64,000 nucleotides of DNA, taken from IMG/VR virus record IMGVR_UViG_3300028920_000032, positions 1 to 64,000 of that record. One strand, given 5' to 3'. Position numbers and translations under genes: made by a program. The notes beneath the pieces were generated by a model. That model saw nothing but the letters and a program-made list of their open reading frames with translations, made no database searches and was not told the DNA's origin. Positions 15,159-64,000 of the stretch are shown in pieces. Position 1 is the first letter of the stretch. Every line of letters starts with the position of its first letter. The DNA is from a virus.

Positions 15159-15668
15159 ATGAATGGCGTATATGTTATTAAAAATATTAAAGAAAACAAA
15201 TTGTATGTTGGATCTTCAATGTATCCAGATTATAGAATACATACTCACTTTAAACAATTGAATGAAAAAACACACGTTAATAAAGAACTTCAAAACGATT
15301 ATAATAGACTTGGAAAAACTAACTTTTCATTTGAAATAATTATTGATGATTTAGAATATTCTGAATTAAAATCTAAAGAACAAGAATATATTGATTCTCT
15401 TAATTCTATAAATGAAGGCTATAATCAAAATAAAGCTAAAGGTTGCAGATTATATAAAAAGAAAAATAGTGAAAATTTTAAAAATGTAAAAATTGATTTT
15501 GATTTACATCATAAAATTAAAGAGATATCATTGAAAACTGGAATTAGCGTTGGGAAACTCATCAGTATGGGTGCTATTAAAATAATTGAAGAATTTCGAA
15601 ATGGAGAATTTGATAAACTAATAACAGTACAAAAAAAGATACGTCGAGATGGTACTATTATTCGCTAG
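15159..15668 (+). CDS. GIY-YIG endonuclease with C-terminal ribbon-helix-helix-like domain
   Basis: GVYVI...LYVGSS...R...H and NEGYN motifs; KNVKIDFDLHHKIKEIS is RHH-like. Confidence 0.8.
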   Translation: MNGVYVIKNIKENKLYVGSSMYPDYRIHTHFKQLNEKTHVNKELQNDYNRLGKTNFSFEIIIDDLEYSELKSKEQEYIDSLNSINEGYNQNKAKGCRLYKKKNSENFKNVKIDFDLHHKIKEISLKTGISVGKLISMGAIKIIEEFRNGEFDKLITVQKKIRRDGTIIR

Positions 15669-16684
15669 TTTTCTTTTTTCTCAAATATTTTCTCTATAAC
15701 AATATGATATGCGTCACTGCGACTTAATTCTTCATCTGGTTCAATTTTAAACTTATTGAACTTTTCCATAAAATTTTTCAATCTCTTATCATGCATTTCT
15801 TTTAATGGTATTAAAGATTTTTTTGAATAATCTTTTGAGTTACCAGATTCAATATCAATAAAAAAACCATCGTCATTACCCATTATGCCCATTCTAATAA
15901 TAAAATAATTATTTGCCACTAGTCTTGTGTCTAACAATTTTAAGAATTTTTTTGCTTCTTCAACTTGATATCTATATCTTATTTTTTTTTGGAAATCTTC
16001 TAACTCACTCAATATCAATAACATTGATCTAGTTTGCTGGAATGGCTTAATTAAATAATTTGTAAAATGTAAAGTCAAATAATATCTATCTTCATTACTA
16101 TATGAGCCATCAATTTTAAAATGATATTTTTCTGCTATTCTTTTTAATTTATTAAATATTTTTGGCTCTTCTTTGTGCAGTTTTTTTGAAAATTCTCTTC
16201 CTTTTTCATATTCTTCTCTATTTCTACCATATCTTTTACCAAGTTTTTTTGCTTCTGCAAGTTCTTCTATTATATTATCAAAAACAGTATTCAATGAAAT
16301 ATTAGTTAGTTTAATTGGTTTTGTTTCAGTAGTACCAACTCTAACTGGTCCAGCCATAAATCCCCAATATAATTTATTCTTTTTAACTTGAAATTCTATT
16401 TCTACTGGTTCTTTATTTTTTGCTAAATCAAATTCAATTTCAAATATGTTTGTAGAAAACATAGGATTATGTGGTCCTAATGAATCAGTCACTGATCTTC
16501 TTAAGCGATCTATTATTTTTTCTATATTGTTCTTGTTAACTTCTAATCCTACCTGTTTTAATTTACGAAAGAGTAATTTTATTGATTCTATTGGAAATTC
16601 TGCTAGTACATCAAGTGCATTTTCATTACCTAATTTTTCGAGTGATTTACTTCTAGCTTCTAACAATTGTTTTAGTTTAAACAT
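15665..16684 (-). CDS. hypothetical protein, possible internal head protein
   Basis: 339-aa ORF; N-terminal MFKLKQLLE; C-terminal HIVIEKIF motif. Confidence 0.7.
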   Translation of the reverse strand: MFKLKQLLEARSKSLEKLGNENALDVLAEFPIESIKLLFRKLKQVGLEVNKNNIEKIIDRLRRSVTDSLGPHNPMFSTNIFEIEFDLAKNKEPVEIEFQVKKNKLYWGFMAGPVRVGTTETKPIKLTNISLNTVFDNIIEELAEAKKLGKRYGRNREEYEKGREFSKKLHKEEPKIFNKLKRIAEKYHFKIDGSYSNEDRYYLTLHFTNYLIKPFQQTRSMLLILSELEDFQKKIRYRYQVEEAKKFLKLLDTRLVANNYFIIRMGIMGNDDGFFIDIESGNSKDYSKKSLIPLKEMHDKRLKNFMEKFNKFKIEPDEELSRSDAYHIVIEKIFEKKEN

Positions 16685-16692
16685 TAAATCCT

Positions 16693-17151
16693 TTATAATT
16701 TCCCCATTATTATATTAACATTATCACATACTTTTTTCTTTATTGATTCATCTAAAAGATCTATGTGTCTCATTGCAAACTCGTTTAATATACCCCATTT
16801 GTATGACTGGTATACATTGCCAATTGGCCAAACTCCCAATAGATATTCATAAGCATTTTCATTCTCTTCCCAGTCTGTCAATACTTTTCCATAAGCGTCT
16901 ACGTCTGTAAAATAATATGGGCTGGAATAATCTACCCAATCACCCCAATGTCCAGGTCCTATGTCACTAATATTATCTTCTAAAATTTTTCTACTCCATT
17001 TTTTAACAACTGCTAACTTTGCAAGGCTAAATATTTCATCCATATATTCTGGGCCTTCATCATTTGTAATTCTAAATTTCTTATTTCTAGTTGAGACATC
17101 ATTTTTTGTAATTGCTTTAAAAATGATTTTGATTAGTATGTGACTATCCAT
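16693..17151 (-). CDS. hypothetical protein
   Basis: 152-aa ORF preceded by AAGATAAA motif; N-terminal HILIKIIF. Confidence 0.7.
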   Translation of the reverse strand: MDSHILIKIIFKAITKNDVSTRNKKFRITNDEGPEYMDEIFSLAKLAVVKKWSRKILEDNISDIGPGHWGDWVDYSSPYYFTDVDAYGKVLTDWEENENAYEYLLGVWPIGNVYQSYKWGILNEFAMRHIDLLDESIKKKVCDNVNIIMGKL

Positions 17152-17157
17152 CTTAGA

Positions 17158-17183
17158 TTTATCTTGCCTTAGAGAAAGATAAA
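17158..17183. promoter_or_regulatory. back-to-back AAGATAAA motifs, putative divergent phage promoters
   Basis: 17158-17165 (-) lies 6 nt before the 17151 ATG and 17176-17183 (+) lies 3 nt before the 17187 ATG; motif recurs before other genes. Confidence 0.55.
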
Positions 17184-17186
17184 TGT

Positions 17187-17770: not shown

Positions 17771-17806
17771 TAAAGCCAAATAAATTATATTTATGCCATC
17801 TTACAA

Positions 17807-18028: not shown

Positions 18029-18047
18029 ATATATGCACTAAGAAATC

Positions 18048-18115: not shown

Positions 18116-18168
18116 TATAAATAACATATATAAATAACACTATATAAGATTATTAATGCTTTTGTGGT

Positions 18169-18882
18169 TTAAGATTTGATTTCTCTCATTGACCATTTTT
18201 TCCAACGGCCATTATTAATATTGTGATCTTTATCCATTAGATAATTAGCTAAGCAATATTTAAAAACTCTAAAATCCATGCGAGTAATTTTAGATAAATT
18301 AGTATACATCCATTTTAGTACTTCTTCTTTAAATTCAAGTGGCACTCTTGGTAAATAATCTGGGAGTACTTCTTTTATTCTATCTAGAGTTTGTTTTATT
18401 GTTAAATCTATTTTTATTACTTTTGATCTACTTTTAATAGCAGGATCGATTCTCATTTTGTTTGTAATAAATATAACTCCAGAAGTAAATTGAAAACGTT
18501 CTGGTATTTCATCTTTTTTTCTTTTTCTTGTTGTGTCAACCCATGAAATTATTCTTTTTCTCTCATCTTGTAATGCTGTCATTAACAAATTCACTTGTGA
18601 TCTTGTTCTGCCAGCATTATCTATATCATCAAACACAATAATTATATTTTTTCTATGCTTATAGAGGATTTTTGCTAATTCATAACTTCCTTTTATACCA
18701 CCAGAATAAATTACATGTTTAAGATTATTTTTTTTCAAACAATCAATTACTACTCTTGTTTTACCTAAACCAGCTCGGCCATAAACTATAATCGAATTGA
18801 TAAGACTGCGTCCCATAACACTGATATAATTTTCGAGCATTTTAAATTGTTCTTGGTATGGTATTCTTGGAGTCTGAGCCAC
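18169..18882 (-). CDS. AAA+/P-loop ATPase (probable GTG start at 18882)
   Basis: Walker A GRAGLGKT, Walker B IIVFDDID, sensor FITN, arginine finger IKSRS; AGGAGGAG SD before the GTG. Confidence 0.85.
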   Translation of the reverse strand: MAQTPRIPYQEQFKMLENYISVMGRSLINSIIVYGRAGLGKTRVVIDCLKKNNLKHVIYSGGIKGSYELAKILYKHRKNIIIVFDDIDNAGRTRSQVNLLMTALQDERKRIISWVDTTRKRKKDEIPERFQFTSGVIFITNKMRIDPAIKSRSKVIKIDLTIKQTLDRIKEVLPDYLPRVPLEFKEEVLKWMYTNLSKITRMDFRVFKYCLANYLMDKDHNINNGRWKKWSMREIKS

Positions 18883-19039: not shown

Positions 19040-19258
19040 TTATGTTTTGCAAATTTCATCTATTATTTTGTGAAAATTGTTTTTTCCAATCATTGCAACA
19101 ATATCACGAATTGTTGCTGTTGAAAGTTTTCCAATTATTTCATTATCTTTTTTGTTTTGCACATAAAAATATGAAATAAAAGTATGTGGGTCAGTAATAT
19201 AACCAATATTGTGAAATGGGTGTTCTTTATTAATTTTTTCACATGTAGTTATTTTCAT
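19040..19258 (-). CDS. hypothetical protein
   Basis: 72 aa, AGGAG SD. Confidence 0.6.
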   Translation of the reverse strand: MKITTCEKINKEHPFHNIGYITDPHTFISYFYVQNKKDNEIIGKLSTATIRDIVAMIGKNNFHKIIDEICKT

Positions 19259-19314: not shown

Positions 19315-19584
19315 TTAATGTTTGCCAAATATAAATATTATTGTTTTATGTTTTAATCTGTTAGGAAATGGCATCTTAAGTTTAATGATTTCTCTATCAG
19401 CAACGAATGTATATGCTGCAGAAATAGTATGCATATACATTTCACCTGTTTTAAAATTTATATCAAATGTTGCAACTAATTTCTTCCCATCAACTTGTTT
19501 TATATCTAAGATTTTAAAAATGCTATGTGGTAAACCAACTTCAGGTTTCCACTGGTACCATTTTCCTACTTCTTTTTTTGCCAT
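19315..19584 (-). CDS. hypothetical protein with C-terminal HKTIIFIF motif
   Basis: 89-aa ORF on the coding strand. Confidence 0.65.
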   Translation of the reverse strand: MAKKEVGKWYQWKPEVGLPHSIFKILDIKQVDGKKLVATFDINFKTGEMYMHTISAAYTFVADREIIKLKMPFPNRLKHKTIIFIFGKH

Positions 19585-23600: not shown

Positions 23601-24011
23601 ATTTGTATATCCACCATCAAGAGTTGGGCTGTTTGTAGATTCACAATCACCATATTCTACTTCTTCAATTCTGCGGCTTAATTCTCCACTTATTTCAGCT
23701 CTACCTCTACTATCATAATCATGATCATCAGATTCAACTCCAGTTACTACATCTCCACCACTAATTATCATTCCACCGATGCCATCATAATCGCCTATTG
23801 CTTTTGTTATATTTCCAGATAATATTATAGCAGAATCACCAGTAGCTTCATAAGAAAAAATTGGATGTTCATATATTCCTTTACCTGTTGTATATATTAT
23901 ACCACCAATTGTTGGATAAAATGTATGTTCTTCCCAGATACTAGATGCTGTACCAGAAAGTATAACTGGATTTTCTTTTAATTCATTATATTTATACCAT
24001 TTTTTAATCAT
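20682..24011 (-). CDS. virion protein with four carbohydrate-binding-module-like (galactose-binding fold) repeats
   Basis: four copies of EYGDCESTNSPTLD.GY...A.W.R....Y.G.YSW...D(M/L)HG...YID.(F/L)SI separated by G/S/T-rich spacers. Confidence 0.75.
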   Translation of the reverse strand: MIKKWYKYNELKENPVILSGTASSIWEEHTFYPTIGGIIYTTGKGIYEHPIFSYEATGDSAIILSGNITKAIGDYDGIGGMIISGGDVVTGVESDDHDYDSRGRAEISGELSRRIEEVEYGDCESTNSPTLDGGYTNLSGASWERTTDQVYNDSYSWVMTKISGAQSFVTLADSESTTDLHGIIPGKIYQIRVAIYTTVVTPSNCYFRIYEYYSSSWHATDLHPSASDTWQILSTDHTINASTTGFFIKLFTPITEAVGTKVYIDDFSISYIGEIELDLFATNNGQATVSGEVIANERSYTNDTISGGMVLSGGDIVTGVESDDHDYEGNGALISSGIVSEQIECITEVAVDTLVTSGDGLYEIEIEREGSYGAITSGGASLAAPEYIALATGFATTSGTSENQTEFTREVIGSTVVSGYAIHHMQTDDDDFYIPIELEQVTTTGLADLNFEIARDGSGSLTTSGTTGDGSDMFEINREIIPTTMLINGATEYECLCCFLYDSILPTIEEIEYGDCESTNSPTLDSGYSNLENATWERTTGQVYNGIYSWEFNVITSVNNAKIDLVDTKNESDMHGLETSCYYELNVALRTDEENFTELMFLEFQQYYDGAWHATENDRCRVNNPNSWETFTKIYYINPSTTGINISLEGYTSLSNKKLWIDSLSLIKMPLSGTIGDTLLDLTPDIILNTIITSGIIGQPEISNVIYSGTEHVEYGDCESTNSPTIDNGYSVLTGATWGRTSNDKHDGVYSWLLTKTTGAGGGYAYNAMSDTFNPSDMHGFIAGEEYYYSLWFKTDVDTLSNAKFQILEYSSEWTIPVARTVSTSDWTHFTGTFTIGSNTTGFSINVWMHTNELSGKKIYIDELTITNVNDIVFGESPLDLITDIIPETMLISGCSIHHMQTDDDDFYIPIVPASMTIDGNVDLDSFDIMRYNFIEHSDCESINSPTLDGGYSNAENATWTRSTDRVYEGNYSWELNKDSLPGAGSAIVYLTDNLNTSDMHGLEANTTYLLSVAMNSNASTPTNAKIYVLEYIEGWNIAATISSTIVNSWQYFSNIEFSIDAAATAISIQVYIATAEPLNTKLYIDKFSITSAAPKLIISGAADTEYET

Positions 24012-27000
24012 CGACTGTACCCCATAATGCTACTCTTCCTGAACCACCAGCAACTATTAAATCATCTTCATATGCTACTAAAGAATATATTGGTTCATTT
24101 CCAATTGCTGTCATATTGTCAAATGGCCCAATTCCACTTCCTGAGCCATCATAATTTTTCCAATTAGCTCCGTCATATGAAGCAAGCCTACCATTGTCAC
24201 TTCCGAATACTAAATAATTAGTGTATATTTCTACAGCTTGTATAGTAACCCCCGCTCCTAGTAAATTAGTTGAAGAGTTATATATACCTGTGCCAGTTCC
24301 AGATCCGTTATATAATCTCCAGTTAGTACCATCGTATGAAGATATTCTATTATATGGTCCAGCAACTATTAATAATGTGTTGAATTGTATTAATTCCCAT
24401 ATTCTTTCACTAGTACCAAGTACATTCTGTCCATATGGACCTGTTCCGCTTCCTGTTCCGTCTGAATTCTTCCAGTTTGTACCATCATATGAAAATATTT
24501 GACCTAATATTGTACCAAATATAATCATATTATTATATATTGTAATTGCTGTTATAATATCATTACTACATGTTGCACCACCGTCATTATATGGTCCAGT
24601 ACCAGTTCCCGATCCATCATAATACTTCCAATTAGTACCATCATATGATGAAACTCTACCATCATAACCAGCAACAATCAATATATTATTATAATCTATT
24701 GCAACTGTTATAATATTACTACCAAGAGTTGCTGAATTATATGGACCTGTGCCACTTCCTGAACCATCATAATTTTTCCAGTTAGTGCCATCATATGAAG
24801 CAAGCCTACTGTTATAACCTGCTACTATTAAGAAATCTGAAATCCCATCTGAATACTTAATTACTGGATATATCCTACCTGATCCAATCGCAGCACTATT
24901 ACTATATGGTCCTGTTCCGCTTCCTGTTCCATCATATTTTTTCCAATTGTTACTATCATATGAAGCAACTCTCCCACTCTCTCCACCTACAACATAAATC
25001 CCATTGTAGTCAGTAGCTCTCCATATAGTAGTATTTATTGTATTTGATCCATTATCATAAATAGAATTTTCTTCTTCAGCTCCAGAATAACTATAACCAG
25101 CAAGTAAAATCATTTCAACATCATCTGGTTGGGCAACTCCTGTTGTATATATTGAACCATATCCACTTCTAACAATTTCAGTCTCAACATCTGAACTACC
25201 AGTTGTTGTTAGTGTACCAGTTACTAAATGTTTTTCTATAGAAGTTAATGCAGCTCCACCAACAATTGCTGAACCTTCTGCATCATATGGTTCTTCATAA
25301 TGTACTTGTGGCTGGAAATAATCTAAAGCCATATTCCATGTTGACCAATCATCATCTGTTGTGTTCTCATTATTATAACTTGGCCAATTAATTTCTTTTT
25401 TTACTCTGTCTGAATCTGTTCTCAAGGCTTCACTAAAATCTTGATGTCTTGTATATTTTGACATATGACCATTTCTAGTAAGATCTTCACCTTCTTGTGC
25501 TCTGCTTATATAACCATTTCTTTGTATATAAAAATTTGCTCTATCAACAGATTCTACAGGATTATTTGTAACACTAACTAATATTGTAAATATTGTATTT
25601 AGTGTATCTTCAATTATTGGAATTACATCATCATTTGGTGTAATTGAAAAAAATGTATTAAATGCATTTCTTTCTCTAGTAAACATTTTATCTTCAAATG
25701 TTCTATAATAATTTGAATAATTGTCAAATTCATATTCAGTACCATCAATGGTAAATTTGTGACCTAAATCTGTAGTTTCTGCATAATTTTCGACATTATC
25801 ATCCCAAGTTGCTCCAGCTTCAATACTTTCGATTCGCAAATAACTGTTTGTAGTTAATGAAGCTACATCACCAAGATGATTATAATTCAAAAACACTCCT
25901 TTATTTGGGACTATTAAAGTTATTATCATATCAGAAGTAGATAGTATTTCTAAGCTAACTTCTGTAGCTGTCGTACTATCATATAATAGAAATTCTTTTT
26001 TTGCTAATGTCCCATCTGTTTTTCGTATTTGACAACATACTTCATCATCAGTAATTTTGTGGTATACAAGAATTATATTTTCATTAGTTGTTTCAATAGT
26101 TGCTAATACATTAATATCTTCAATAAATACTGAACTACTTACAATTTCATTTCCGCTAGCATCCCAAACTTCATAATATCCCTTATTATCATTTGTATCT
26201 CTCCAGGCAAGATATATTTCATTTGCTGAAGTTTCTACTAAGTTTGTTTCTACTATTGTAGTGCTAACATCAAAACCTTTTGTGGAATTAGTCATATTAC
26301 CAAATAAATAAGTTCCATCATTTTTCATATATACTAAAACACCACCAGATCCACCGACAGCACTTATTACTAAATCATCAGAAAGTGTAGTAACATCAAA
26401 TTGTGTTAAGCTAGAAGTTTGCCATTGATAGCCTGTGCCAACTTCTACTTCTCCATCTAAATCAAATATTTTCATATAACTATCTGACGAACGATCGTAT
26501 ATAATTACTACTCTATTATTTGTTAATGTAATAGATTGAATATCAGTTAATGAAGAGCCTTCACCTGGATCAGTTTCAATAGTATTTGAAGTGGTGAGTT
26601 TGTCTCCATCGTAATTAAAAATTAACCATTTTACATTATTAATATCTTTTTCCCTATATGCTACTAAAAACTTCTTAATTGTATCATTATTGCTTGATAC
26701 TACTGTTACTAAATCAACATCTACTAAACTAAAATTGATTCCTGATTTATATATCGTCCCATTTGGATTCATTATTATAATTCTTCCAGCCCCACTACTA
26801 ACATCACGATATACTATTACAATTTTATCATTTGTTAATCTTGCAGAATCTAAATATTGACAAGTAGTTGAAATTGCAAAGTTTGTGTTTACTGTTAAAT
26901 CATAATGATTATTAATTGCATCAATTATTTGTTGACCAGTTGTAGATGATATTGTTTCTCCTGACACATCTACTTCAGAAAAATCAGTATCATCTAAATT

Positions 27001-29205
27001 CATATAAAAACTATAATCATGAGCAAGTGTTAAGCTAGTAGAATCAGTTGGATCTGTAAAAGTTGCAAAATCTTGATAACCTTTAGTAGAAAAATTACCA
27101 TCTATGGGTGCTAAAGGTGACACACTTAAACTTGTAAATAAATCATCTACAATACCATTTGCCATATATACTTTAGATGACATACTTAAAGTGTCTGAAT
27201 ACACTCTTACTGTATATGTTTGTGGAGGTGGAAACAAAGTTGGGTCAGGATATATAGTAGCTGTTGCATCAATTGAATTTGCTACAAATTGAACATTGAT
27301 TGCATCTACTAAATCTTCAAAAGTTTGTGCATCTGTACCATTTACTGTTATTTTTGTACCTCGACCTTCATCAACTTTTAAATTAATTAAATTTGAATTT
27401 GTTAAATCACTTGGTGTACTTAAATCTATGCTTCCAGTAATAGTTATACCATGTGTTGGATTTCCAAATATTACAGGCATTGCTGAGTCTGACGTTCCAT
27501 TAAAATCTAAATCTTGTGTACCATTTATTGCAACAATAACTGCATCATCTGATGCTGGCATTAAATTTAATGGTATATAATCTCTTAATGTTACAAATAT
27601 AAATGGTAATAATATATCTACCCAATTAGGATCACCTGGATCTCCTTCAAGAGTTACTTCAGCAGCTTCGGGATTATAGTTTTCAAACTCTTCCTCCCAA
27701 GGTGTGGTGACAACATCAATAAAAGCTGATACATATATAGGTGTCAAGAATTTAACATATTTTAATATTGTGTCTGTATCTTTCGCTGTCAAATCTTGTT
27801 TGGTATAGAATTGTGTTAATCTAAAATTAATATAATTACTTTTAAAATAAGTAAATTTATCTTCATCAGTTATCTCAGATTTTTTAAATCCTAATATTTC
27901 CGACAAAGAATAAGTAGATTGTAAATCATCAAAATATCTCAGGTCTTTAGATTCTGTCCACAATTTTGGATCGATAGGTTGTTGTGCTCCAGAATTTGAC
28001 ATGTCACTTAGTTGATCACGATGTCTTGTTCTTGGATTTTGAGTAGTTAAATAATATAGAATATTAGTAGAATCAATAGCAGCAAATCCTTCTGGGTTTT
28101 GTGCATCCCTATCCCAATAATATTCTCTGACTTCTGCATCAAATCCCAATAATTTAAAAAATAATTGAAATGAATATTCTGTACCTTTCCTTTTATATAT
28201 TTCTGTAAGATTTTTAATTAATTCTCGGAATGAAATATTTTCAATTGAAAAGTCTTCTTTTTGATAACCTAATAAATGTGCCATATATTTTAAGAGGTTC
28301 TCATCAATTTCATCTATATTAGATAAAGTATTTAAATCTGTTATTTTTTGGTCAATTGTGTCTAATAATATTCCAAGACCATCAAAATATATTTTTAAAT
28401 TAGTTGTTGAACTAATAATTTCATTATCATAATTGGGTACATATGAATTTAACAAATTATGGAAAAAGAATTGTTCTTCATTAAAAAATTTGTAGCAATA
28501 ATATAACCATTTTAATAAGTAAATATATAATGTTCCTTCTGAAGAAGTATAAGTTCTATAATTGTCTTTATGTGGTGCAGCTATATTTCCTGGATATAAA
28601 CCAAGTACTGTTGAAACTTCTTCATTTAAAGCAGCAATAGATAATGTTGGTTCTAGACCCTGTTCAGTTATTTCAATTGTAAATCCAGTGGGTATAGAAC
28701 CATCACTGGCATCATCTACTTCACCATCAGAATCATTTGTAATTATGACTACTTCATCACTTACTGTTGCGCCTAAACCTGTTATAGCATCTACTGCAGA
28801 TTGCATTGCTGCAGCAACAGTATTTGCTGGATCATTGCTACTGATAGCAACTTCAATTGCAACGCGACCAACTGGAGAAGGATCTACACCAGCACCTGTA
28901 TTAAACCATATATAGTAATCAGTGATTGGTGTAGATAAATTAAAATATGAACCATTTAAAGAATGACCAACATCTCCTACACAAGTGATAGTAGTAATTT
29001 CAGCATTACCAATTACCTCATCTGGATCTTCTGCTAAATTATATACTGTATTTGCTTGAATTAGATCATCAAATTTAAATAATACATCATCTACTAATGT
29101 TCTTACTAAACTATCAAAATCTATATCAAACTCTACTAATAAATCTTGTAAAATAGTGTTAGAACTAAGAATGTTTATAAATTTTTGCAGATTTGATTTA
29201 ACCAT
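24004..29205 (-). CDS. baseplate wedge protein (gp7/tail protein I-like) with inserted domains and C-terminal propeller repeats
   Basis: IDEIDENLLKYMAHLLGY...RELIKNLTEIYKRKGTEYSFQLFFKLLG motif; downstream of the gp6-like gene. Confidence 0.8.
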   Translation of the reverse strand: MVKSNLQKFINILSSNTILQDLLVEFDIDFDSLVRTLVDDVLFKFDDLIQANTVYNLAEDPDEVIGNAEITTITCVGDVGHSLNGSYFNLSTPITDYYIWFNTGAGVDPSPVGRVAIEVAISSNDPANTVAAAMQSAVDAITGLGATVSDEVVIITNDSDGEVDDASDGSIPTGFTIEITEQGLEPTLSIAALNEEVSTVLGLYPGNIAAPHKDNYRTYTSSEGTLYIYLLKWLYYCYKFFNEEQFFFHNLLNSYVPNYDNEIISSTTNLKIYFDGLGILLDTIDQKITDLNTLSNIDEIDENLLKYMAHLLGYQKEDFSIENISFRELIKNLTEIYKRKGTEYSFQLFFKLLGFDAEVREYYWDRDAQNPEGFAAIDSTNILYYLTTQNPRTRHRDQLSDMSNSGAQQPIDPKLWTESKDLRYFDDLQSTYSLSEILGFKKSEITDEDKFTYFKSNYINFRLTQFYTKQDLTAKDTDTILKYVKFLTPIYVSAFIDVVTTPWEEEFENYNPEAAEVTLEGDPGDPNWVDILLPFIFVTLRDYIPLNLMPASDDAVIVAINGTQDLDFNGTSDSAMPVIFGNPTHGITITGSIDLSTPSDLTNSNLINLKVDEGRGTKITVNGTDAQTFEDLVDAINVQFVANSIDATATIYPDPTLFPPPQTYTVRVYSDTLSMSSKVYMANGIVDDLFTSLSVSPLAPIDGNFSTKGYQDFATFTDPTDSTSLTLAHDYSFYMNLDDTDFSEVDVSGETISSTTGQQIIDAINNHYDLTVNTNFAISTTCQYLDSARLTNDKIVIVYRDVSSGAGRIIIMNPNGTIYKSGINFSLVDVDLVTVVSSNNDTIKKFLVAYREKDINNVKWLIFNYDGDKLTTSNTIETDPGEGSSLTDIQSITLTNNRVVIIYDRSSDSYMKIFDLDGEVEVGTGYQWQTSSLTQFDVTTLSDDLVISAVGGSGGVLVYMKNDGTYLFGNMTNSTKGFDVSTTIVETNLVETSANEIYLAWRDTNDNKGYYEVWDASGNEIVSSSVFIEDINVLATIETTNENIILVYHKITDDEVCCQIRKTDGTLAKKEFLLYDSTTATEVSLEILSTSDMIITLIVPNKGVFLNYNHLGDVASLTTNSYLRIESIEAGATWDDNVENYAETTDLGHKFTIDGTEYEFDNYSNYYRTFEDKMFTRERNAFNTFFSITPNDDVIPIIEDTLNTIFTILVSVTNNPVESVDRANFYIQRNGYISRAQEGEDLTRNGHMSKYTRHQDFSEALRTDSDRVKKEINWPSYNNENTTDDDWSTWNMALDYFQPQVHYEEPYDAEGSAIVGGAALTSIEKHLVTGTLTTTGSSDVETEIVRSGYGSIYTTGVAQPDDVEMILLAGYSYSGAEEENSIYDNGSNTINTTIWRATDYNGIYVVGGESGRVASYDSNNWKKYDGTGSGTGPYSNSAAIGSGRIYPVIKYSDGISDFLIVAGYNSRLASYDGTNWKNYDGSGSGTGPYNSATLGSNIITVAIDYNNILIVAGYDGRVSSYDGTNWKYYDGSGTGTGPYNDGGATCSNDIITAITIYNNMIIFGTILGQIFSYDGTNWKNSDGTGSGTGPYGQNVLGTSERIWELIQFNTLLIVAGPYNRISSYDGTNWRLYNGSGTGTGIYNSSTNLLGAGVTIQAVEIYTNYLVFGSDNGRLASYDGANWKNYDGSGSGIGPFDNMTAIGNEPIYSLVAYEDDLIVAGGSGRVALWGTVDD
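24030..25030 (-). repeat. six roughly 60-aa repeats (GR.ASYDGTNWKNYDGSGSGTGPY), probable beta-propeller blades
   Basis: directly visible in the translation. Confidence 0.85.
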
Positions 29206-33994: not shown

Positions 33995-34321
33995 TTATAA
34001 ATTCTTAAAGAATGTTATTATGAATTCATGTTTATTTTTAAATAAATTATTTAATTTATTTTTATTTAATTTAAATAATCCTGAAAATGGACTTTTTTGA
34101 TCACATTTTATAAAAGTTCCGTTCACTCCCATAGTATACCTATTGTTAAAATAATTATTTTCACTAAATATATATGTAAAATTATAATGTGGTATCAGAG
34201 GACCATACCCATCCTCCCTTGCGTCTATTATACCATTGTATCTCATAATTGTTATAGTGCCTCTACTGCGTCCGCCATCATAAAAATAATATAATTCACC
34301 TTTTTTAATATCTTTGATCAT
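33995..34321 (-). CDS. hypothetical protein with C-terminal HEFIITFF motif
   Basis: 108 aa, GAGGAAG SD. Confidence 0.65.
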   Translation of the reverse strand: MIKDIKKGELYYFYDGGRSRGTITIMRYNGIIDAREDGYGPLIPHYNFTYIFSENNYFNNRYTMGVNGTFIKCDQKSPFSGLFKLNKNKLNNLFKNKHEFIITFFKNL

Positions 34322-34339: not shown

Positions 34340-34816
34340 TTATTCAAATATACTCTTTATCAATTTATAATAATCTTTATGTTCAATAGGCCAACCATTT
34401 GTATTTATATAAAATTCAAAATTATTTATTCTAGCTAAAGCTCTGCCTTCTTTGAAATTGCCAACATCATCATAAATTATAGGCGTTGTCACTTTGCCAT
34501 TTAGATCAATATGGCCATATTTACCATTTTTCTGCTGGACCCAAGCTCTGCCTTCAGAGAAATAGCCAACATCATCATAAATTATTGGCGTTGTTATATT
34601 GCCATTTAGATCAACATGACCACATTTGCCATTTTTCTTAACCCAAGCTCTGCCTTCTTGGAAATAGCCAACACTATCATAAACTATAGGCGTTGTCACT
34701 TTACCATTTAGATCAACATGACCCTCTTTACCATTTTTCTGGACCCAAGCTCTGCCTTCATTGAAATAACCAATGTTATCTAAATTTAATTTTTTCTTTA
34801 TTTGTTCTTTAGTCAT
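34340..34816 (-). CDS. WG-repeat protein
   Basis: 35-aa repeats F.EGRAWV.KNGK.GHVDLNGKVTTPI.YD. Confidence 0.85.
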   Translation of the reverse strand: MTKEQIKKKLNLDNIGYFNEGRAWVQKNGKEGHVDLNGKVTTPIVYDSVGYFQEGRAWVKKNGKCGHVDLNGNITTPIIYDDVGYFSEGRAWVQQKNGKYGHIDLNGKVTTPIIYDDVGNFKEGRALARINNFEFYINTNGWPIEHKDYYKLIKSIFE

Positions 34817-35184
34817 TTAAACAAACCTTTTATCAATTTATAAAAATCTTTGTGTTCAATAGGCCAACCATTTGTATTTATATAAAATTCAAAATCATTT
34901 ATTCTAACCCAAGTTCTGCCTTTATAGAAATTGCCAACATCATCATAAATTATTGGCGTTGTCATTTTACCATTTAGATCAACATGACCCTCTTTACCAT
35001 TTTTTTCAACATAAGCTCTGCCTTCATAGAAATCGCCAACATCATCATAAACTATAGGTGTTGTCACTTTACCATTTAGATCAACATGACCATATTTGCC
35101 ATTTTTTACAACTATTGCTCTGCCTTCTTGGAAAGAGCCAACGCCATCTAAATTTAATTTTTTCTTTATTTGTTCTTTGGTCAA
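34813..35184 (-). CDS. WG-repeat protein (TTG start)
   Basis: same repeat; paralogue of 34340..34816. Confidence 0.85.
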   Translation of the reverse strand: MTKEQIKKKLNLDGVGSFQEGRAIVVKNGKYGHVDLNGKVTTPIVYDDVGDFYEGRAYVEKNGKEGHVDLNGKMTTPIIYDDVGNFYKGRTWVRINDFEFYINTNGWPIEHKDFYKLIKGLFK

Positions 35185-49679: not shown

Positions 49680-50046
49680 TAAATATTTCCTTTATCAATT
49701 TATAAAAATCCTTATGCTCAATTGGTATACCATTTTTGTTTATATGAAATTCTACTTTGTTAATTCTAACACAAGCTCTTCCTACTTCGAAATCAAAAAC
49801 ATCATCATAAATTATAGGCGTTGTAACGTTGCCATTTAGATCAACATGACCCCACTTGTTGCCTTTTATAACCCAAGCTCTGCCTTCATTGAAAAATCCA
49901 ACACCATCATAAATTATAGGCGTTGTTACTTTACCATTTAGATCAACATGACCATATTTATTGTTTTTTAAAACTCGAGCCCTGTTTTCTGAGAAGTTGG
50001 CAATACCGTCTAAATCTAACTTTTTCTTTATTTGTTCACTAGTCAT
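49669..50046 (-). CDS. WG-repeat protein
   Basis: same 35-aa repeat family. Confidence 0.85.
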   Translation of the reverse strand: MTSEQIKKKLDLDGIANFSENRARVLKNNKYGHVDLNGKVTTPIIYDGVGFFNEGRAWVIKGNKWGHVDLNGNVTTPIIYDDVFDFEVGRACVRINKVEFHINKNGIPIEHKDFYKLIKEIFNAK

Positions 50047-50413
50047 TAAATATCTCTTTTATCAACTTATAATAATCTTTATGTTCAATGGGATAACCAT
50101 TTATATTTATATCAAATCCAAAATTTTTGATTTCAACCCAAGCCCTACCTTCATGGAAATTGCCAATATTATCATAAATTATAGGCGTTGTTACTTTACC
50201 ATTTAGGTCAACATGACCCTCTTTGCCATTTTTCTCAACATAAGCTCTGCCTTCATAGAAATTGCCGGCATCATCATAAATTATTGGTGTTGTTACTTTA
50301 CCATTTAGATCAACATGACCATACTTATTGTTTTTTAAAACTCGAGCCCTGTTTTCTGAGAAGTTTGCAATCCTGTCTAAATTTAACTTTTTCTTTATTT
50401 GTTCACTAGTCAT
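50039..50413 (-). CDS. WG-repeat protein (probable start MTSEQ at 50413)
   Basis: 5' end nearly identical to 49669..50046. Confidence 0.85.
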   Translation of the reverse strand: MTSEQIKKKLNLDRIANFSENRARVLKNNKYGHVDLNGKVTTPIIYDDAGNFYEGRAYVEKNGKEGHVDLNGKVTTPIIYDNIGNFHEGRAWVEIKNFGFDININGYPIEHKDYYKLIKEIFND

Positions 50414-50426
50414 ATGAATATACCAA

Positions 50427-51218
50427 TTATTTAGCAAGATCCCAATCATTACTAATTATATATTTAATAATACTATGATATCTTTGATGTTTGTTTCTTC
50501 CTTCAACAATATGTCCAGTAAGAGTATCAAATTTAATTTCTACATACAGATTATTAAATCTTTCATATCTCGAAAATTTTATTTTATCATCTCTTGTATA
50601 AACACATTCGTTAAAAAAATTAGTCTCAATAATCACTTTACCTTTTTTATCAATTAAGCCATAAAAACGTTGCCAATGTGCATATGCATGTCCTAATTCT
50701 TTAGTGATAACTGCAGTACCATTATAAAATTCTCCAATTTCGTCAAATTGTAAAGGTATTACTAATTTACCATTAAGATTGACACATCCTGTCTTACCAT
50801 CTTTTTTTACCTGTGCCAACCCTTCTTTAAATTCAGATGCAACTGAATCATAAATAAGAGGAGTAGTTACTTTACCATTTCTATCTACATGGCCTTCTTT
50901 TCCATCCTTCTCAACCCTTGCTCTGTCATACGAATAGAATTCACCAACATCATCATAAATTATAGGTGTAATTATTTCTTTAGTTTTTTTAATACAATGT
51001 CCATATTTCTTACCTTTTTGGACTATAGCTATACCATTTTTAGATCTGCCAATACTATCACCTTCACCTTCTATTTTCTTTATTAATTCTTTTTTACTAA
51101 TAGGATCAACTTGTTTCCATTTACGACTCTTACCGGGATTTCTGTTAGGACTCTTAGCTTCATTAATATATAAAATTTCACTTAAATTTAGTTTTTTCTT
51201 TATTTGTTCTCTATTCAT
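50427..51218 (-). CDS. divergent, longer WG-repeat protein
   Basis: MNREQIKKKLNL N-terminus, KYGH, FKEGLAQVKKDGK.G.V repeats. Confidence 0.8.
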   Translation of the reverse strand: MNREQIKKKLNLSEILYINEAKSPNRNPGKSRKWKQVDPISKKELIKKIEGEGDSIGRSKNGIAIVQKGKKYGHCIKKTKEIITPIIYDDVGEFYSYDRARVEKDGKEGHVDRNGKVTTPLIYDSVASEFKEGLAQVKKDGKTGCVNLNGKLVIPLQFDEIGEFYNGTAVITKELGHAYAHWQRFYGLIDKKGKVIIETNFFNECVYTRDDKIKFSRYERFNNLYVEIKFDTLTGHIVEGRNKHQRYHSIIKYIISNDWDLAK

Positions 51219-51587
51219 TTAAAATATACTCCTTATCAATTTATAAAAATTTTCATGTTTTAATGGATAGCCATCTTTATTTATATAAAATTCAAAATTA
51301 TTTATTTTAGCCCAAGCTCTACCCTTATAGAAATGTTCAACATCATCATAAATTATAGGTACTACTACTTTACCATTTAGATCAACATGACCCTCTTTTC
51401 CATTTTTCCTAACCCAAGCTCTGCCTTCCTGGAAAGAGCCAACAACACCATAAACTATTGGTGTTGTTACTTTGCCATTTTTATCAACATGACCCATTTT
51501 ATCATTTTTCTGGATCCAAGCTCTGCCTTCATAGAAATTGCCAATACCGTCTAAATTTAACTTTTTCTTTATTTGTTCTTTGGTCAT
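51219..51587 (-). CDS. WG-repeat protein
   Basis: same family as 34340..35184 paralogues. Confidence 0.85.
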   Translation of the reverse strand: MTKEQIKKKLNLDGIGNFYEGRAWIQKNDKMGHVDKNGKVTTPIVYGVVGSFQEGRAWVRKNGKEGHVDLNGKVVVPIIYDDVEHFYKGRAWAKINNFEFYINKDGYPLKHENFYKLIRSIF

Positions 51588-52959: not shown

Positions 52960-53385
52960 TTAGTACCACCAACCTTTTGGGTTTGCTTTCCAAAAAACAT
53001 TTTGTATTATAAGTTGTGGGTTCTTAGTTCTAAAAAAATGTTTTAATACTTTCTCACGAATTTCATTAAAAACTACAATATTATCTAAATTAAAATTTAA
53101 GACAATTTGAACTTTATATTTGTTATAAAATATGAAATTCAAATCTTTAATATCTTTTTTGTTGACTTTAATTTTTGTGTCACAAAGCTTGATTGACATA
53201 TATTTATGTTCCCAGTTTGAAAATTTATTTTTCCCTAAAAATATTTCAAACTGGCCAGTAATATATTCATCATCTATACAATATATATTACTATTTGGAC
53301 TAAATACAACATCACCAATTTTTGGTCTTTTTTTATTGCGTTCTCTTATACTATTATGTAGCTTTATTATTTGATCTCTTGTCAT
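52960..53385 (-). CDS. hypothetical protein
   Basis: 141-aa ORF in a tightly packed run. Confidence 0.65.
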   Translation of the reverse strand: MTRDQIIKLHNSIRERNKKRPKIGDVVFSPNSNIYCIDDEYITGQFEIFLGKNKFSNWEHKYMSIKLCDTKIKVNKKDIKDLNFIFYNKYKVQIVLNFNLDNIVVFNEIREKVLKHFFRTKNPQLIIQNVFWKANPKGWWY

Positions 53386-53386
53386 G

Positions 53387-53605
53387 TTATTTTTCTTGAT
53401 ATTTAAAAAATAATTTTATTATCTTTCTCCTGTCTCTTATGACGTGATTATCTGCAATTTTGATGCGCTCAACACTTGAAAACTTACTTTCATAATATTT
53501 TTTCTTTATTTTAAAAAACACACTACCAATTAAATTAGAATAACCAACATCTAATTGAAACTCTCCTATTATTAAACGACTAGAAACTTCAACTGCACCT
53601 ATCAT
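53387..53605 (-). CDS. hypothetical protein
   Basis: 72 aa, ATGA coupling, C-terminal RKIIKLFF. Confidence 0.6.
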   Translation of the reverse strand: MIGAVEVSSRLIIGEFQLDVGYSNLIGSVFFKIKKKYYESKFSSVERIKIADNHVIRDRRKIIKLFFKYQEK

Positions 53606-54207
53606 TCTTCAACCTCATTAAATGCAACATAAATCATTGCATGTTTGATAAAATCTATAAAATCTTTTATTTCTTCTTCTATTTTATCTAAATTAGTTAA
53701 ATATTTATTAAATTTATATTTGAATTCATGCTCATCTCTCCACTCCCATTGTTTAGCATCTTTTACAGCATCAAATAATTCACTATAATATTCATCTTCC
53801 CATAACATATTCCAATGAAGTTGTGATTCATCTTCCCAGTTTGCATAGTATTGTTTTGAATCTCTGAATTCTTCCCAGTCTTTAAATTCTTTAAATTTAC
53901 CTTCAGCCTTTTCTTCTTCAAACCATTCTTTTACACTAGCTTCAATATAATCATCTATATTAGCAGCATGTTTTAACAAATCACTTATAACTTTTTTGCA
54001 TTTATTTATTCTAGCTTGATGTTCTTTTAACATTTTAGTAAAATTGGGAGGCACCGCTGGATTCTTTGGTAATCCAAATGTATTTAAAAATGATTGCGCG
54101 ACAGGATATTGCTCATACAGACAATCTGAATCCAAATAATTATACTCTTCTTCCATATAACTAAGAGGATCTTCATAATCTTCCCAGTCATTATAAGGTT
54201 CATACAT
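53602..54207 (-). CDS. hypothetical acidic protein
   Basis: 201 aa, C-terminal HAMIYVAF. Confidence 0.7.
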   Translation of the reverse strand: MYEPYNDWEDYEDPLSYMEEEYNYLDSDCLYEQYPVAQSFLNTFGLPKNPAVPPNFTKMLKEHQARINKCKKVISDLLKHAANIDDYIEASVKEWFEEEKAEGKFKEFKDWEEFRDSKQYYANWEDESQLHWNMLWEDEYYSELFDAVKDAKQWEWRDEHEFKYKFNKYLTNLDKIEEEIKDFIDFIKHAMIYVAFNEVEE

Positions 54208-54551
54208 TATTTAACATCCATGTCATAATTAGTAATTACTCCGCCTTTGTCTAATTTGACAAATAACATAATATTATCACTAGTTTCTTTATCAGCACCT
54301 ATGAACTGAATGCTAATCACTTCATCTTTTTTTATAAAAATTTCAGCCCACTTAAACATATCAGTTGCACTTTTGATATTATCTAGAAATATATCTTGAC
54401 CGGTTTGATTCATATGGTCTTCTATCTTTACTTGAATAACTTTTTGCATTTCTGCTGACAATTGATCAGAAGCAATCATAACATTTTTGTTTTCTTTAGT
54501 CTCGCCTTTTTTATTAAATACAATGTCTATAATTTCATGTCTAAGATCCAT
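54207..54551 (-). CDS. hypothetical protein
   Basis: 114 aa, N-terminal HEIIDIVF. Confidence 0.7.
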   Translation of the reverse strand: MDLRHEIIDIVFNKKGETKENKNVMIASDQLSAEMQKVIQVKIEDHMNQTGQDIFLDNIKSATDMFKWAEIFIKKDEVISIQFIGADKETSDNIMLFVKLDKGGVITNYDMDVK

Positions 54552-58340: not shown

Positions 58341-59339
58341 CTAGCTGAAAATTGCAGAAATTGTTGCAAACTCTTCTAATAAAGATAATAATTTATGTTT
58401 GAAATAGAATTTTTGGATTTCTTTCAGGTTGATTTTATCAACATCTACAAACAAAGATTTGTTAATAGTTAAATTTTTTAAGATTGGATTGTTGCTAATT
58501 TTGATAAGTGTCAAATTTCTTTTAATTATTTCTAAATTTTCTTTAACAATATTTAATTTATTTGATACATCTTTCTTTGTTTTCTTTGGAATAGCATTCT
58601 CTATTACATTAAGAATTTCTATGCCACTGGCTATCTCACGAGCTGCTTTAAGTGCTTTCTTTTCGCCAAAACCTGGAACACCTCCTATATCATCTGTTTT
58701 GTCACCCTTAAATGCTTTGTATATGACTACGTCATAATCTTTTGGTATGTTTACATAAATGTCTTTGATTGGGTGATATACTTTTACATTCTTAAATTCT
58801 TGAGCGATTTGTACAAGATCACTGTCAGATGAAACAATAATTACTGTATTATGTTTGCTTAAAAATTTAGAATATAAATATATAATGTCATCAGCTTCTA
58901 AGCCTTCGACACCAATTTGTGACATAGGATAATAATTTAAAACATTCTTAATTTCATTAATATTGTTAAAGAGAATTTCCCATATGGGATCATGTTCATA
59001 ATCGCGACGACATTTATAATCGGGATAAACTTGTTTTCTCCACTCATGTGAGTTTGGATTGTCCCAAGTCATTATAAATGTTCCTGTAAATTTTTTAAAA
59101 TGTTTGTGTAGCTTTCTAAAAAAAACTAGAAGCATCATCCCGCTAATTGCTTTATAATCTTCTTTTTCAATTTGAACATTTTGTTTTGCTTCTTTTTCTG
59201 CAACCCATACTGTCTTGCCTTTCTTTGTAAGAGACTCTACATATTGTTTAATTTTGTTTTTTAAGATTATTGATTTAGCTCTGTGAAATGCAATATGTGC
59301 AAGATTATTTCCATCTAATAATATATACTTTTCATCCAT
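58341..59339 (-). CDS. rnh: 5'-3' exonuclease/flap endonuclease, T4 RNase H-like
   Basis: LLDGNN, WD....WRK..YPDYK..R, GLEADD, VSSDSDL.Q, GDKTDDI.GVPGFGEKKA. Confidence 0.9.
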   Translation of the reverse strand: MDEKYILLDGNNLAHIAFHRAKSIILKNKIKQYVESLTKKGKTVWVAEKEAKQNVQIEKEDYKAISGMMLLVFFRKLHKHFKKFTGTFIMTWDNPNSHEWRKQVYPDYKCRRDYEHDPIWEILFNNINEIKNVLNYYPMSQIGVEGLEADDIIYLYSKFLSKHNTVIIVSSDSDLVQIAQEFKNVKVYHPIKDIYVNIPKDYDVVIYKAFKGDKTDDIGGVPGFGEKKALKAAREIASGIEILNVIENAIPKKTKKDVSNKLNIVKENLEIIKRNLTLIKISNNPILKNLTINKSLFVDVDKINLKEIQKFYFKHKLLSLLEEFATISAIFS

Positions 59340-61364: not shown

Positions 61365-61366
61365 TT

Positions 61367-62015: not shown

Positions 62016-62244
62016 CAGGAGTTATTTTCTTTTTAAAGTATACAAAAAGTTTTCTTATATCTTTTTTAGATATATCTGGAATTTTTCCTGCGACAACTTT
62101 AATTTGTTCTCTCTGAGCTATTCTTGTTTCTTTGATTTCTTTTTCATAACCAAGATATGTTTTTAAGCCATCTAAGAAATCTCTTTGCTCATCAGAATTA
62201 AATAATTCAAATTTTTTTGTTATATCAGACATTGCCACCTCCAA
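61939..62244 (-). CDS. T4 DsbA-like double-stranded DNA-binding protein
   Basis: about 95-aa helical protein with ISKKDIRKLF.YFKK pattern similar to DsbA; near rnh as in T4. Confidence 0.45.
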   Translation of the reverse strand: MEVAMSDITKKFELFNSDEQRDFLDGLKTYLGYEKEIKETRIAQREQIKVVAGKIPDISKKDIRKLFVYFKKKITPDELREDADAIQSIQESMDDVIRQTE

Positions 62245-62959
62245 TTATATTAGCCCATGTTTTTAATTTTAACTTAAACATAGGATCATAAATATTATAC
62301 TTATTAATAAAGTATGCCATTTCATCTTCAAAAATAATATTAGCTTTTTTATGCTCAATAGCGATATTATTACTATCAACAATATAATATTCATAAGGAC
62401 CAGCTTCTATATCAACAAAGCATACTTTCGTTGTTTTTACACCTTCTTCTGTAGAAGAGAGTTTGATTTTTCGTCGTCTCTTTGGTGTAACAGCAATCTT
62501 ATGCATACGTTTCCAGTAACTCCATTTTTTACATTCTTTCATAATTTTTACATAAGTATTTAAATATCTGAATGGTTTAAATATTAAATCATTTTTTTCT
62601 TTTGAATATGAACACAAAAATAATCCTTGCTGATCTCTTCTATGTACACTATTAAAAACACTAAAAAAGCGTACATCTATTTGACCTTCTGGGTGTCTTG
62701 AAGAAGTTTGTCGACTTTCTTGTGGCACTAAACAAAAATGTAATTTTTTAATTTGCATTCTAGTTTTTTTATATGGTTCTGGAACATTGATGAATACTGT
62801 ATATGTAGCTTCTGACCACTTAAGATCTAAATGAGAAATATTAGAAACTAATGGATCGTTGTATAAATAAAGTGCTTTATTGTCTTTTAAAAATTTTTCT
62901 AATCTTTCTCTAGCTTCTGTCAATATACCACTATTTGTCATTTTAGTCACTGAATCCAA
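62225..62959 (-). CDS. hypothetical protein
   Basis: 244-aa ORF. Confidence 0.7.
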   Translation of the reverse strand: MDSVTKMTNSGILTEARERLEKFLKDNKALYLYNDPLVSNISHLDLKWSEATYTVFINVPEPYKKTRMQIKKLHFCLVPQESRQTSSRHPEGQIDVRFFSVFNSVHRRDQQGLFLCSYSKEKNDLIFKPFRYLNTYVKIMKECKKWSYWKRMHKIAVTPKRRRKIKLSSTEEGVKTTKVCFVDIEAGPYEYYIVDSNNIAIEHKKANIIFEDEMAYFINKYNIYDPMFKLKLKTWANIIGGGNV

Positions 62960-63191
62960 ATATAGCTTTAATTGTTTTGTTTATAACTTTTGATAATTGA
63001 CAAAAGTCATCTTCTGGCATTTGTATTGTAACATTGTTATACATTAAGAATATAACATCATCTTCTCTCCATGTATATATTTTTAAATTCTTATCTTCAA
63101 TACCTGCAAGAATTGCCGTTGTGTTTGCTTCATCGTTGGGGACGTTATCAAAATTTTCATCCATCATTTCTATTTCAGCATCTTTGCTCAT
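62943..63191 (-). CDS. hypothetical protein
   Basis: 82 aa, C-terminal NKTIKAIF. Confidence 0.65.
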   Translation of the reverse strand: MSKDAEIEMMDENFDNVPNDEANTTAILAGIEDKNLKIYTWREDDVIFLMYNNVTIQMPEDDFCQLSKVINKTIKAIFGFSD

Positions 63192-63743
63192 ATTATTCTA
63201 CCCTTCTATTGTGATTTTTTGTTAGTCATTTTTCTCCAGTTCGTTAGGATGATTTTCATCCATCCATTTATTAAATTCATCAGATCCGGTAGTTTCTGTA
63301 AGAGATGTTCCGGTGAAAACAAATGTTCTCTTTTCTTTCCAATATTGTTTTAATATAGGGATAAAAGATTCTTTTATATTACAATAAGGATATTTATTTT
63401 CTTTTTCCTGTTCCGGTGATCCCCATTTTAGTTGGTATGCAGTGCCACAAATAAGACATACTCCTTCTCCTGAATAATCTGTCCATCTGCATCTTAACGG
63501 ATTTCCACAGATGATACATACTTCAGTTCCCTTCAACTCTCTATTTGCTTCTAAATCATAATCAAATTTTATTCCTGCTTTTATCATTTGTTTACCTCCA
63601 AATAATTTAGGCTGTATATATTGTTTTTACAAACAATACCTATCTTTATCTCCTCCTGATATAGCTAAACATGAATTCTCCTTATCTATTATGGCGTTGG
63701 CAAAATTTTCATCCATCATTTCTATTTCAGCATCTTTGCTCAT
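63149..63743. repeat. 43-bp exact direct repeat (63149-63191 and 63701-63743)
   Basis: caaaattttcatccatcatttctatttcagcatctttgctcat occurs twice, 552 bp apart. Confidence 0.9.
63222..63587 (-). CDS. Zn-finger protein
   Basis: CIICG...CLICG; GGAGG SD. Confidence 0.75.
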   Translation of the reverse strand: MIKAGIKFDYDLEANRELKGTEVCIICGNPLRCRWTDYSGEGVCLICGTAYQLKWGSPEQEKENKYPYCNIKESFIPILKQYWKEKRTFVFTGTSLTETTGSDEFNKWMDENHPNELEKND

Positions 63744-63884
63744 GCTATTTCTCCTTTCTATTATGTTGTTCTTTAAGAAAATGTTTATAATATCCATCGT
63801 TACCAGCAATAACATGGCCTAAATATGTAAAACATGAGTTCCCATTACCTGGTAATTTTCTGCCACATATGCAGCAGTTATAAC

Positions 63885-64000
63885 TCATAATATTTCCCCT
63901 TCAAATATTTCTTTTGCAAAATTATATGCATATTCATTTATTCTCAATTGAACTCTAAAATTTTCAAGTTCTTTAGGGGTAATAATCTCACATTTAATAT
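63885..64000 (-). CDS. partial ORF (3' end only)
   Basis: open frame ...NEYAYNFAKEIFEGEIL* overlapping the next ATG. Confidence 0.5.
   Translation of the reverse strand, partial: IKCEIITPKELENFRVQLRINEYAYNFAKEIFEGEIL

Follow-up and report, generated by a model that had tools for sequence, protein, structure and literature searches.

The stretch analysed here (the window) comprises the first 64,000 nucleotides (64 kb) of a 158,329-bp uncultured phage contig, IMG/VR record IMGVR_UViG_3300028920_000032, which has a guanine-plus-cytosine (GC) content of ~30%, an estimated completeness of ~70% and genes that lie almost all on the minus strand. Positions 1-52 kb form a contractile-tail baseplate and fibre module that includes a 4,523-aa fibre protein, a P2 gpI-like protein and a protein with a carbohydrate-binding domain; Tail_P2_I is found in 24004..29205, the second gene downstream of 33995..34321. 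From ~52 kb onwards lie T4-style replication accessory genes, including those for a T4 RNase H-like 5'-3' exonuclease, a gp32-like single-stranded-DNA-binding protein (SSB) and a DnaE-type polymerase, together with nucleotide-metabolism genes. Proteins of both regions carry, close to one terminus, an eight-residue motif with the overall consensus [H/Y, less often R/K/N/Q]-x-hydrophobic-I-[K/I]-x-hydrophobic-F, for which the most apt description is a clade-specific terminal helix motif (Table 1). An earlier, sequence-only reading of this DNA had reported the motif on about 15 small proteins and had proposed a portable tag that docks diverse cargo on one phage-encoded partner. All of the peptides that it quoted are present at the genes that it named. 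The small carriers are left unannotated by Pfam and PHROGs scans, the 89-aa protein 19315..19584 included, for which these scans return no family.

Table 1. Motif occurrences in the window, with two further genes referred to in the text.
Feature	Position	Strand	Match	Carrier and remarks
HIVIEKIF	15683..15706	-	strict	339-aa protein 15665..16684; 5 residues from end
HILIKIIF	17119..17142	-		open reading frame 16693..17151; residues 4-11 if ATG at 17151 is used
AAA+ ATPase, T4 NrdC.10 homologue	18169..18882	-		Pfam AAA; phrog_1250 at 7e-25; weak match to clamp-loader family phrog_168
HKIIDEIC	19049..19072	-	loose (Cys for Phe)	72-aa protein 19040..19258
HKTIIFIF	19327..19350	-	strict	89-aa protein 19315..19584; 3 residues from end
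HEFIITFF	34007..34030	-	strict	108-aa protein 33995..34321, baseplate operon; 3 residues from end
YKLIKSIF	34346..34369	-	strict	WG-repeat paralogue 34340..34816; PF14903 at 1e-36
YKLIKGLF	34819..34842	-		WG-repeat paralogue 34813..35184; structure modelled
YKLIKEIF	49681..49704	-		WG-repeat paralogue 49669..50046
YKLIKEIF	50048..50071	-		WG-repeat paralogue 50039..50449
HSIIKYII	50454..50477	-	loose	long WG paralogue 50427..51218
YKLIRSIF	51222..51245	-		WG-repeat paralogue 51219..51587; codons overlap the ribosome-binding (Shine-Dalgarno) site of the next gene
QLIIQNVF	52993..53016	-	loose	52960..53385; 10 residues from end
RKIIKLFF	53405..53428	-	loose	72-aa protein 53387..53605
HAMIYVAF	53620..53643	-	strict	201-aa protein 53602..54207; 5 residues from end
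HEIIDIVF	54516..54539	-	strict, N-terminal	114-aa protein 54207..54551; residues 5-12
FATISAIF	58347..58370	-	loose	T4 RNase H-like 5'-3' exonuclease 58341..59339; 1 residue from end
NKTIKAIF	62958..62981	-	loose	82-aa protein 62943..63191
YNFAKEIF	63903..63926	-	loose (Ala for Ile)	226-aa protein 63885..64565; adjoins the gp32-like SSB gene
gp32-like SSB	64622..65479			phrog_224 / PF08804

Enrichment of the motif was measured on 214 gene calls of our own across the whole genome, using the strict pattern [HY]xxIxx[ILVMFAC]F and counting a match as terminal when it starts within the last 16 residues. Strict C-terminal matches occur in 11 of the 214 proteins, corresponding to seven families when the five WG-repeat paralogues are counted once. 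Two proteins have a strict match at the N-terminus, or three if the ATG at 17151 is the true start of 16693..17151, which is uncertain because a weak Shine-Dalgarno (SD) sequence precedes 17151 and a better one precedes the ATG at 17043. Among ~41,000 internal positions there is a single strict match. Shuffling of whole proteins yields an expectation of 0.22 terminal matches and shuffling of the last 30 residues one of 0.19, against the seven observed, and none of 2000 shuffles reaches seven, including those confined to the last 30 residues. The pattern had been fitted on the window, and the fair test is the 160 genes outside it: two of these have a C-terminal match, HDVIKFFF (131289) and YDLIKHIF (132023), where 0.15-0.18 would be expected and 18-28 of 2000 shuffles are as high (p ~0.01).

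The enrichment is specific to particular residues. When all positions but one are kept fixed, seven terminal matches are obtained with Ile at position 4 and none with Leu or Val; at position 8, Phe gives seven, Leu one and Ile none. Position 1 is His in five of the seven strict families and Tyr in two, and the enrichment is specific to these two residues; position 7 is Ile in four, Phe in two and Ala in one. A generic pattern of the form hydrophobic-x-x-hydrophobic-x-x-hydrophobic-hydrophobic is only 1.2-fold enriched. A scan for three-residue motifs, the p-values of which are not relied on, places I..IF, IK..F and H..I...F among its top patterns, and the heterogeneous K.V.S also surfaces. The claim of a terminal motif thus stands as regards enrichment, but the motif is near-terminal, in that strict C-terminal matches end 0-7 residues short of the stop and the loose matches in 50427 and 52960 8-10 residues short of it; the N-terminal cases begin 3-4 residues past the start codon.

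Two control sets lack this enrichment. In an AT-rich bacterial metagenome-assembled genome (400 kb, 33-36% GC, similar amino-acid composition) none of 428 proteins has a terminal match, and five internal matches occur. In loci of other phages, gathered via the exonuclease family, two of 1,508 proteins from 71 loci have one, both 8 residues from the end, and the low-GC subset has none among 552 proteins from 26 loci. The enrichment is therefore not a general property of AT-rich proteomes or of the small proteins of phages, and the terminal motif in this phage is real and limited to its phage group.

Within this group the motif recurs. In L007, a near-identical phage that reaches past the start of the window, there are additional WG paralogues, and a 172-aa zinc-finger protein has HNMIKSIF at its end; in L041, the exonuclease of which is 59% identical, three small proteins end HEVIKLIF, HRIIKKIF and HEIIKKIF. 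In a distant relative of 117 kb, three WG paralogues end [HQ]YDLIIG[VA]FK and a 133-aa protein ends HQAIKKAFTEM. Pooled, the relatives have seven strict terminal matches against 0.21 expected, a number that none of 2000 shuffles reaches. The 117-kb relative is G001:C1 (L010-L015), a contig of 117,045 bp that is longer than any other in its 2.6-Mb bacterial assembly; it encodes giant proteins of 3,055 and 3,615 aa besides the WG paralogues and could be a prophage or a mis-binned phage contig. Single-protein scans for relatives and cultured phages gave no matches for 53602, 15665 or the exonuclease.

Individual orthologues retain the motif. HAMIYVAF is identical in an orthologue of 53602 with 85% overall identity, and the orthologue of 62943..63191 reads NKTIKVIF. 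A 40%-identical orthologue of 54207..54551 has MDLKHEIFGLLF at the N-terminal motif.

Conservation was followed in depth in three families, the first of which is that of the WG proteins. WG_beta_rep (PF14903) is matched above the Pfam threshold by the five to six paralogues (E 1e-36 and 7e-33), and homologues down to 46% identity keep L-I-x-x-x-F. AlphaFold2 (AF2) modelled the paralogue 34813..35184 from a 20-sequence alignment at a predicted local distance difference test score (pLDDT) of 96.7, with a short N-terminal helix, propeller-like blades and a C-terminal helix (residues 111-121) in which the motif lies at pLDDT 90-95; structure comparison of this model returned generic propeller blades only. 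The N-terminal helix of the WG proteins, MTKEQIKKKLNLD (34340..35184, 49669..51587), resembles K(E/R)ETKA(L/M)LR. Both end helices are confidently modelled, and the N- and C-terminal motifs might pair.

The second family is that of the 339-aa protein 15665..16684. Seventeen homologues, with identities as low as 20%, retain [RKHQ]-x-hydrophobic-[IVM]-K-x-hydrophobic-[FL] and, after it, a short tail of charged character. The AF2 model (18 sequences, pLDDT 87.8) consists of tandem modules of a beta-hairpin and a helix, and the last helix (322-338) bears the motif at a pLDDT of about 90; fold comparison gave generic alpha/beta matches only, with Z up to 7.5. In the models of both families the motif helix looks like part of the fold rather than a tag borne on a linker. 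The 339-aa family adjoins the giant fibre gene in a relative too. It is represented in L037:2145-4156 by two tandem paralogues of 331 and 339 aa, both ending in the K-variant of the motif. In P0021, which is 89% identical to 15665..16684, the last 13 residues (VSYCHRKNI...) look like the motif region shifted out of frame by one base, whether through an error in sequencing or because the helix was lost naturally. A GIY-YIG homing-endonuclease gene on the opposite strand (15159..15668, +) lies between the 339-aa gene and the giant fibre gene; a GIY-YIG gene occupies the same position in L037 (4854-5330), though the L037 339-aa protein is only 34% identical.

The third family is the exonuclease 58341..59339, a member of Pfam 5_3_exonuc of which the closest solved structure is T4 RNase H (PDB 1tfr/3h8s, phmmer E 5e-9). 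About 30 homologues (42-59% identity) end F[DE]SV[IV]SIF plus one or two residues. Comparison by eye with a close relative (85-95% identity) shows four synonymous changes in ISAIF, with changes at positions 2-3. The protein has a conserved C-terminal extension beyond the H3TH domain, in keeping with the T4 RNase H type, and is without the N-terminal extension that carries the clamp motif in T4 RNase H. Near this gene, the order 64622..65479, 63885..64565, 63222..63587, 62943..63191, 58341..59339 resembles the T4 32-59-33-dsbA-rnh block (window and L001). The position of the 226-aa protein beside the SSB gene is kept in three relatives, and this protein could be a helicase-loader analogue; an identity as gp59, suggested for 63885..64565 by synteny, receives no support from Pfam.

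The reading that we favour is that the motif is a shared docking helix for one common partner, to which we give a probability of roughly 45%. It is ranked first because of the combination of residue specificity (four constrained positions, including a rare His), a limit of ~7 residues from the terminus, the use of both ends, the presence on different folds and the restriction to one clade. On this view the carriers would all offer one His/Ile/Phe face to a single phage or host hub protein and be recognised in the manner of the PCNA-interacting-protein (PIP) box or of the clamp-interaction motifs of T4. The carriers came by the helix in more than one way: in the WG and 339-aa families it is the last helix native to the fold, some of the tiny proteins have it from a common ancestor, and in one relative it was copied when a WG gene end was retained. 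It is a tentative step further, and one that we consider doubtful, that a narrow phage clade uses a dedicated terminal helix code to dock varied proteins of its own on a single hub. The cargo of such a code may include the WG binders of the baseplate operon, the fibre-linked 339-aa protein, replication accessory proteins and tiny ORFans. That the code would amount to an undescribed phage-internal recruitment or sorting system, with a PIP-box-like logic and a different reader, is likewise possible rather than probable.

Several observations weigh against a shared docking helix. No partner for the motif helix was found, and the carriers are spread over very different modules, namely the baseplate operon, the replication module and clusters of ORFans. 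In distant homologues of the 339-aa protein His is replaced by R/K/Q, Ile by V/M and Phe by L, as in ordinary core helices, and the confident last helix in both modelled families would fit intramolecular packing equally well. Relative L044, with an exonuclease of 45% identity, has no strict match in 21 kb, and the feature therefore marks a narrow clade.

Independence of the carriers is the remaining difficulty. BLAST and phmmer detect no similarity among them beyond the WG family and the 132893/133204 pair. However, an iterated hidden Markov model (HMM) built from two L041 proteins recruits 131289 and 53387 together with tiny proteins of L041, L037 and the 117-kb relative, and none of the 428 control proteins; hidden paralogues are thus present among the tiny carriers. 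In L007 the last 19 nt of the zinc-finger gene and the ATGACT after them match WG gene ends exactly, which makes the tail of this protein a retained WG junction. Its gene (L007:9482-10000) lies inside the WG tandem array and looks like a foreign gene insertion that kept the WG 3' junction including the SD of the next gene. Hidden paralogy and this retained junction together mean fewer independent origins than first appear. After these corrections the apparently separate carriers are the WG and 339-aa families, 19315, 33995, 53602, 132023 and the 131289/53387 group, to which the N-terminal 54207 and 155608 and the looser exonuclease, 62943 and 63885 are added, and this corrected set is still far above expectation. 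The proposal made from the sequence is therefore partly supported: a protein-level motif on several families holds, but the number of about 15 unrelated cases does not, and neither does the free tag, since the predicted helix is the last one of the fold in the two modelled families and is amphipathic in only about half of the carriers.

The main rival to the docking helix is a plain end-cap, a C-terminal helix of the ordinary kind packed against the beta-sheet of its own protein, which would recur through hidden ancestry, through helices proper to each family and through recombination that keeps gene ends. We regard this as possible, although unlikely on balance. The high confidence of AF2 in the helix of two families and the core-like substitutions of the 339-aa family (I/V/M at position 4, F/L at position 8) agree with such a cap, as do the HMM-detected grouping, the zinc-finger protein with its WG gene end and the architecture of many of the tiny carriers, in which a beta-rich body is followed by a helix. 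However, packing of this kind leaves unexplained why His/Tyr, Ile and Phe should be chosen alike in propeller blades, tandem alpha/beta modules, tiny proteins and a 201-aa acidic protein, why the motif is so scarce internally, and why it is nearly absent from other phages.

It is improbable that the motif serves for sliding-clamp binding in the way of a PIP box, with the host clamp or a diverged clamp of the phage as its reader. The spacing of the key residues (1, 4, 7, 8), the location near N- or C-termini, the basic residues that often follow, the one Q variant among the looser matches (QLIIQNVF), the flap endonuclease among the carriers and the weak match of the AAA+ protein to a clamp-loader family would all suit such a role. 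Against this, searches of the ~70% complete contig with PF00712, TIGR00663, PF09116 and PF00705, or by phmmer with T4 gp45/44/62, found no clamp, nor did Pfam/PHROG scans of ~40 replication-region proteins, and two 230-aa candidates look unrelated to clamps in the ESM Atlas. Moreover, both halves of DnaE are without the motif, the helix is predicted to be ordered and is thus no disordered tail, and WG proteins of a baseplate operon would be unlikely clients of a clamp. In the exonuclease the clamp motif found at the N-terminus of T4 RNase H is missing, and the tail occupies the place at which the T4 enzyme binds gp32. The bacterial beta-clamp-binding motif is QL[SD]LF or QLxLxL; the carriers end I-x-x-hydrophobic-F, and none has QLxLF.

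Slightly less probable again is a membrane-targeting amphipathic helix that would place peripheral proteins on the cell membrane. Such sequences in MinD, FtsA and SepF are short terminal helices that act as portable modules, with core strings such as I-K-S-F-F. YKLIKSIF, RKIIKLFF and HEIIKKIF are cationic and markedly amphipathic, with hydrophobic moments of 0.6-0.8 against a background of 0.30. However, the terminal 16 residues of the strict carriers range in net charge from -3 to +4 and in hydrophobic moment from 0.2 to 0.8, HKTIIFIF, HEFIITFF and HAMIYVAF being low at 0.2-0.3. Membrane-targeting helices accept any bulky hydrophobic residue, in contrast to the Ile/Phe-specific enrichment found here, and the helix is modelled within the fold.

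It is very unlikely that the motif is a recognition tag, either degron or loading signal, for an AAA+ machine such as the NrdC.10-like ATPase 18169..18882 or a host unfoldase or protease. AAA+ unfoldases commonly read short terminal tags, and three or four carriers (15665, 16693, 19040, 19315) flank the AAA+ gene, which the sequence-only reading had put forward as a possible adaptor; nothing beyond this proximity links it to the motif, and that suggestion is not supported. The NrdC.10 family has tblastn matches in 1,261 phages, most of them T4-like, where it goes by the annotation nrdC.10 or hypothetical; the motif, by contrast, is limited to a narrow clade. On the contig of the 117-kb relative the AAA+ homologue was not detected, while other contigs of the same assembly have it. 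The gene 18169..18882 covers only positions 86-313 of the 327-position PHROG family, and the upstream 72-aa gene 19040..19258, which ends HKIIDEICKT, might be a split-off N-terminal part of the AAA+ protein.

Largely refuted is an origin of the motif in AT-rich composition, as an artefact, or in a DNA-level signal (SD, promoter or gene boundary) that is read as peptide: the shuffles of local composition and the AT-rich controls dispose of the former, and for the latter, the motif codons of the five WG paralogues do overlap the SD or start of the next gene, and the tail in L007 is a retained WG junction, but the non-WG families use different codons at -4 to +630 nt from the next gene, so that the motif is not an SD or DNA artefact. 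In 53602 the downstream SD falls after the motif and not within it. A T4-type late promoter was considered because the YKLI codons resemble TATAAATA, and was rejected as this sequence is no commoner on the coding strand than chance predicts (22 occurrences, 42 expected). Background composition and SD overlap, the two explanations named beforehand as fatal to the proposal, thus both fail to account for the motif.

If the motif is a docking code, it would provide a common functional handle for more than 12 unannotated proteins, and one pull-down could identify the hub. If it is merely a structural end-cap, it serves as a warning that a solid motif across families can stem from paralogy, family helices and retained gene ends.

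Among known systems, the cargo peptides of encapsulins and bacterial microcompartments are terminal, common to unrelated cargo, read by one shell protein and borne on flexible linkers. The motif resembles them as a terminal helix common to unrelated proteins and differs in that no shell or compartment gene is seen and the helix is modelled within the fold. With the MinD, FtsA and SepF sequences it shares a short terminal helix, and their I-K-S-F-F resembles the IKSIF found here, but charge and amphipathicity are uneven and the choice of residues is far more specific. In T4 RNase H a C-terminal helical cap contacts gp32 and the clamp (PIP) motif is N-terminal (PMC3012046). The exonuclease is homologous, has a conserved C-terminal tail and has a gp32-like SSB gene nearby, and by this analogy the SSB would be the most plausible partner for the exonuclease alone, which is one carrier only and has Phe in place of His/Tyr at position 1.

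The PIP box is defined as Q-x-x-[ILM]-x-x-aromatic-aromatic, and T4 gp43, gp33 and RNase H bear terminal clamp motifs (PMC3012046). Position 4 agrees, being Ile in all strict matches, whereas position 1 is His/Tyr (or R/K/N) and not Gln, and position 7 is more often aliphatic than aromatic. The PIP definition fails at these two positions and no clamp was detected on the ~70% complete contig, and the motif is therefore not filed as a PIP box; the ordered alpha-helix predicted for it and the polymerase without the motif further set it apart from the T4 clamp motifs. The likeness to the PIP box and to the gp45-binding motifs lies in the arrangement: eight residues with keys at positions 1, 4, 7 and 8, near a terminus, in several unrelated proteins of one phage. 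In T4, of which the gp43 and gp33 tails were inspected, a single phage hub is able to read short motifs at the ends of several proteins. Short motifs that route many proteins to one hub are well known from cells and from T4 with its clamp as hub, and have rarely been recognised in uncultured phages, the small proteins of which otherwise lack annotation.

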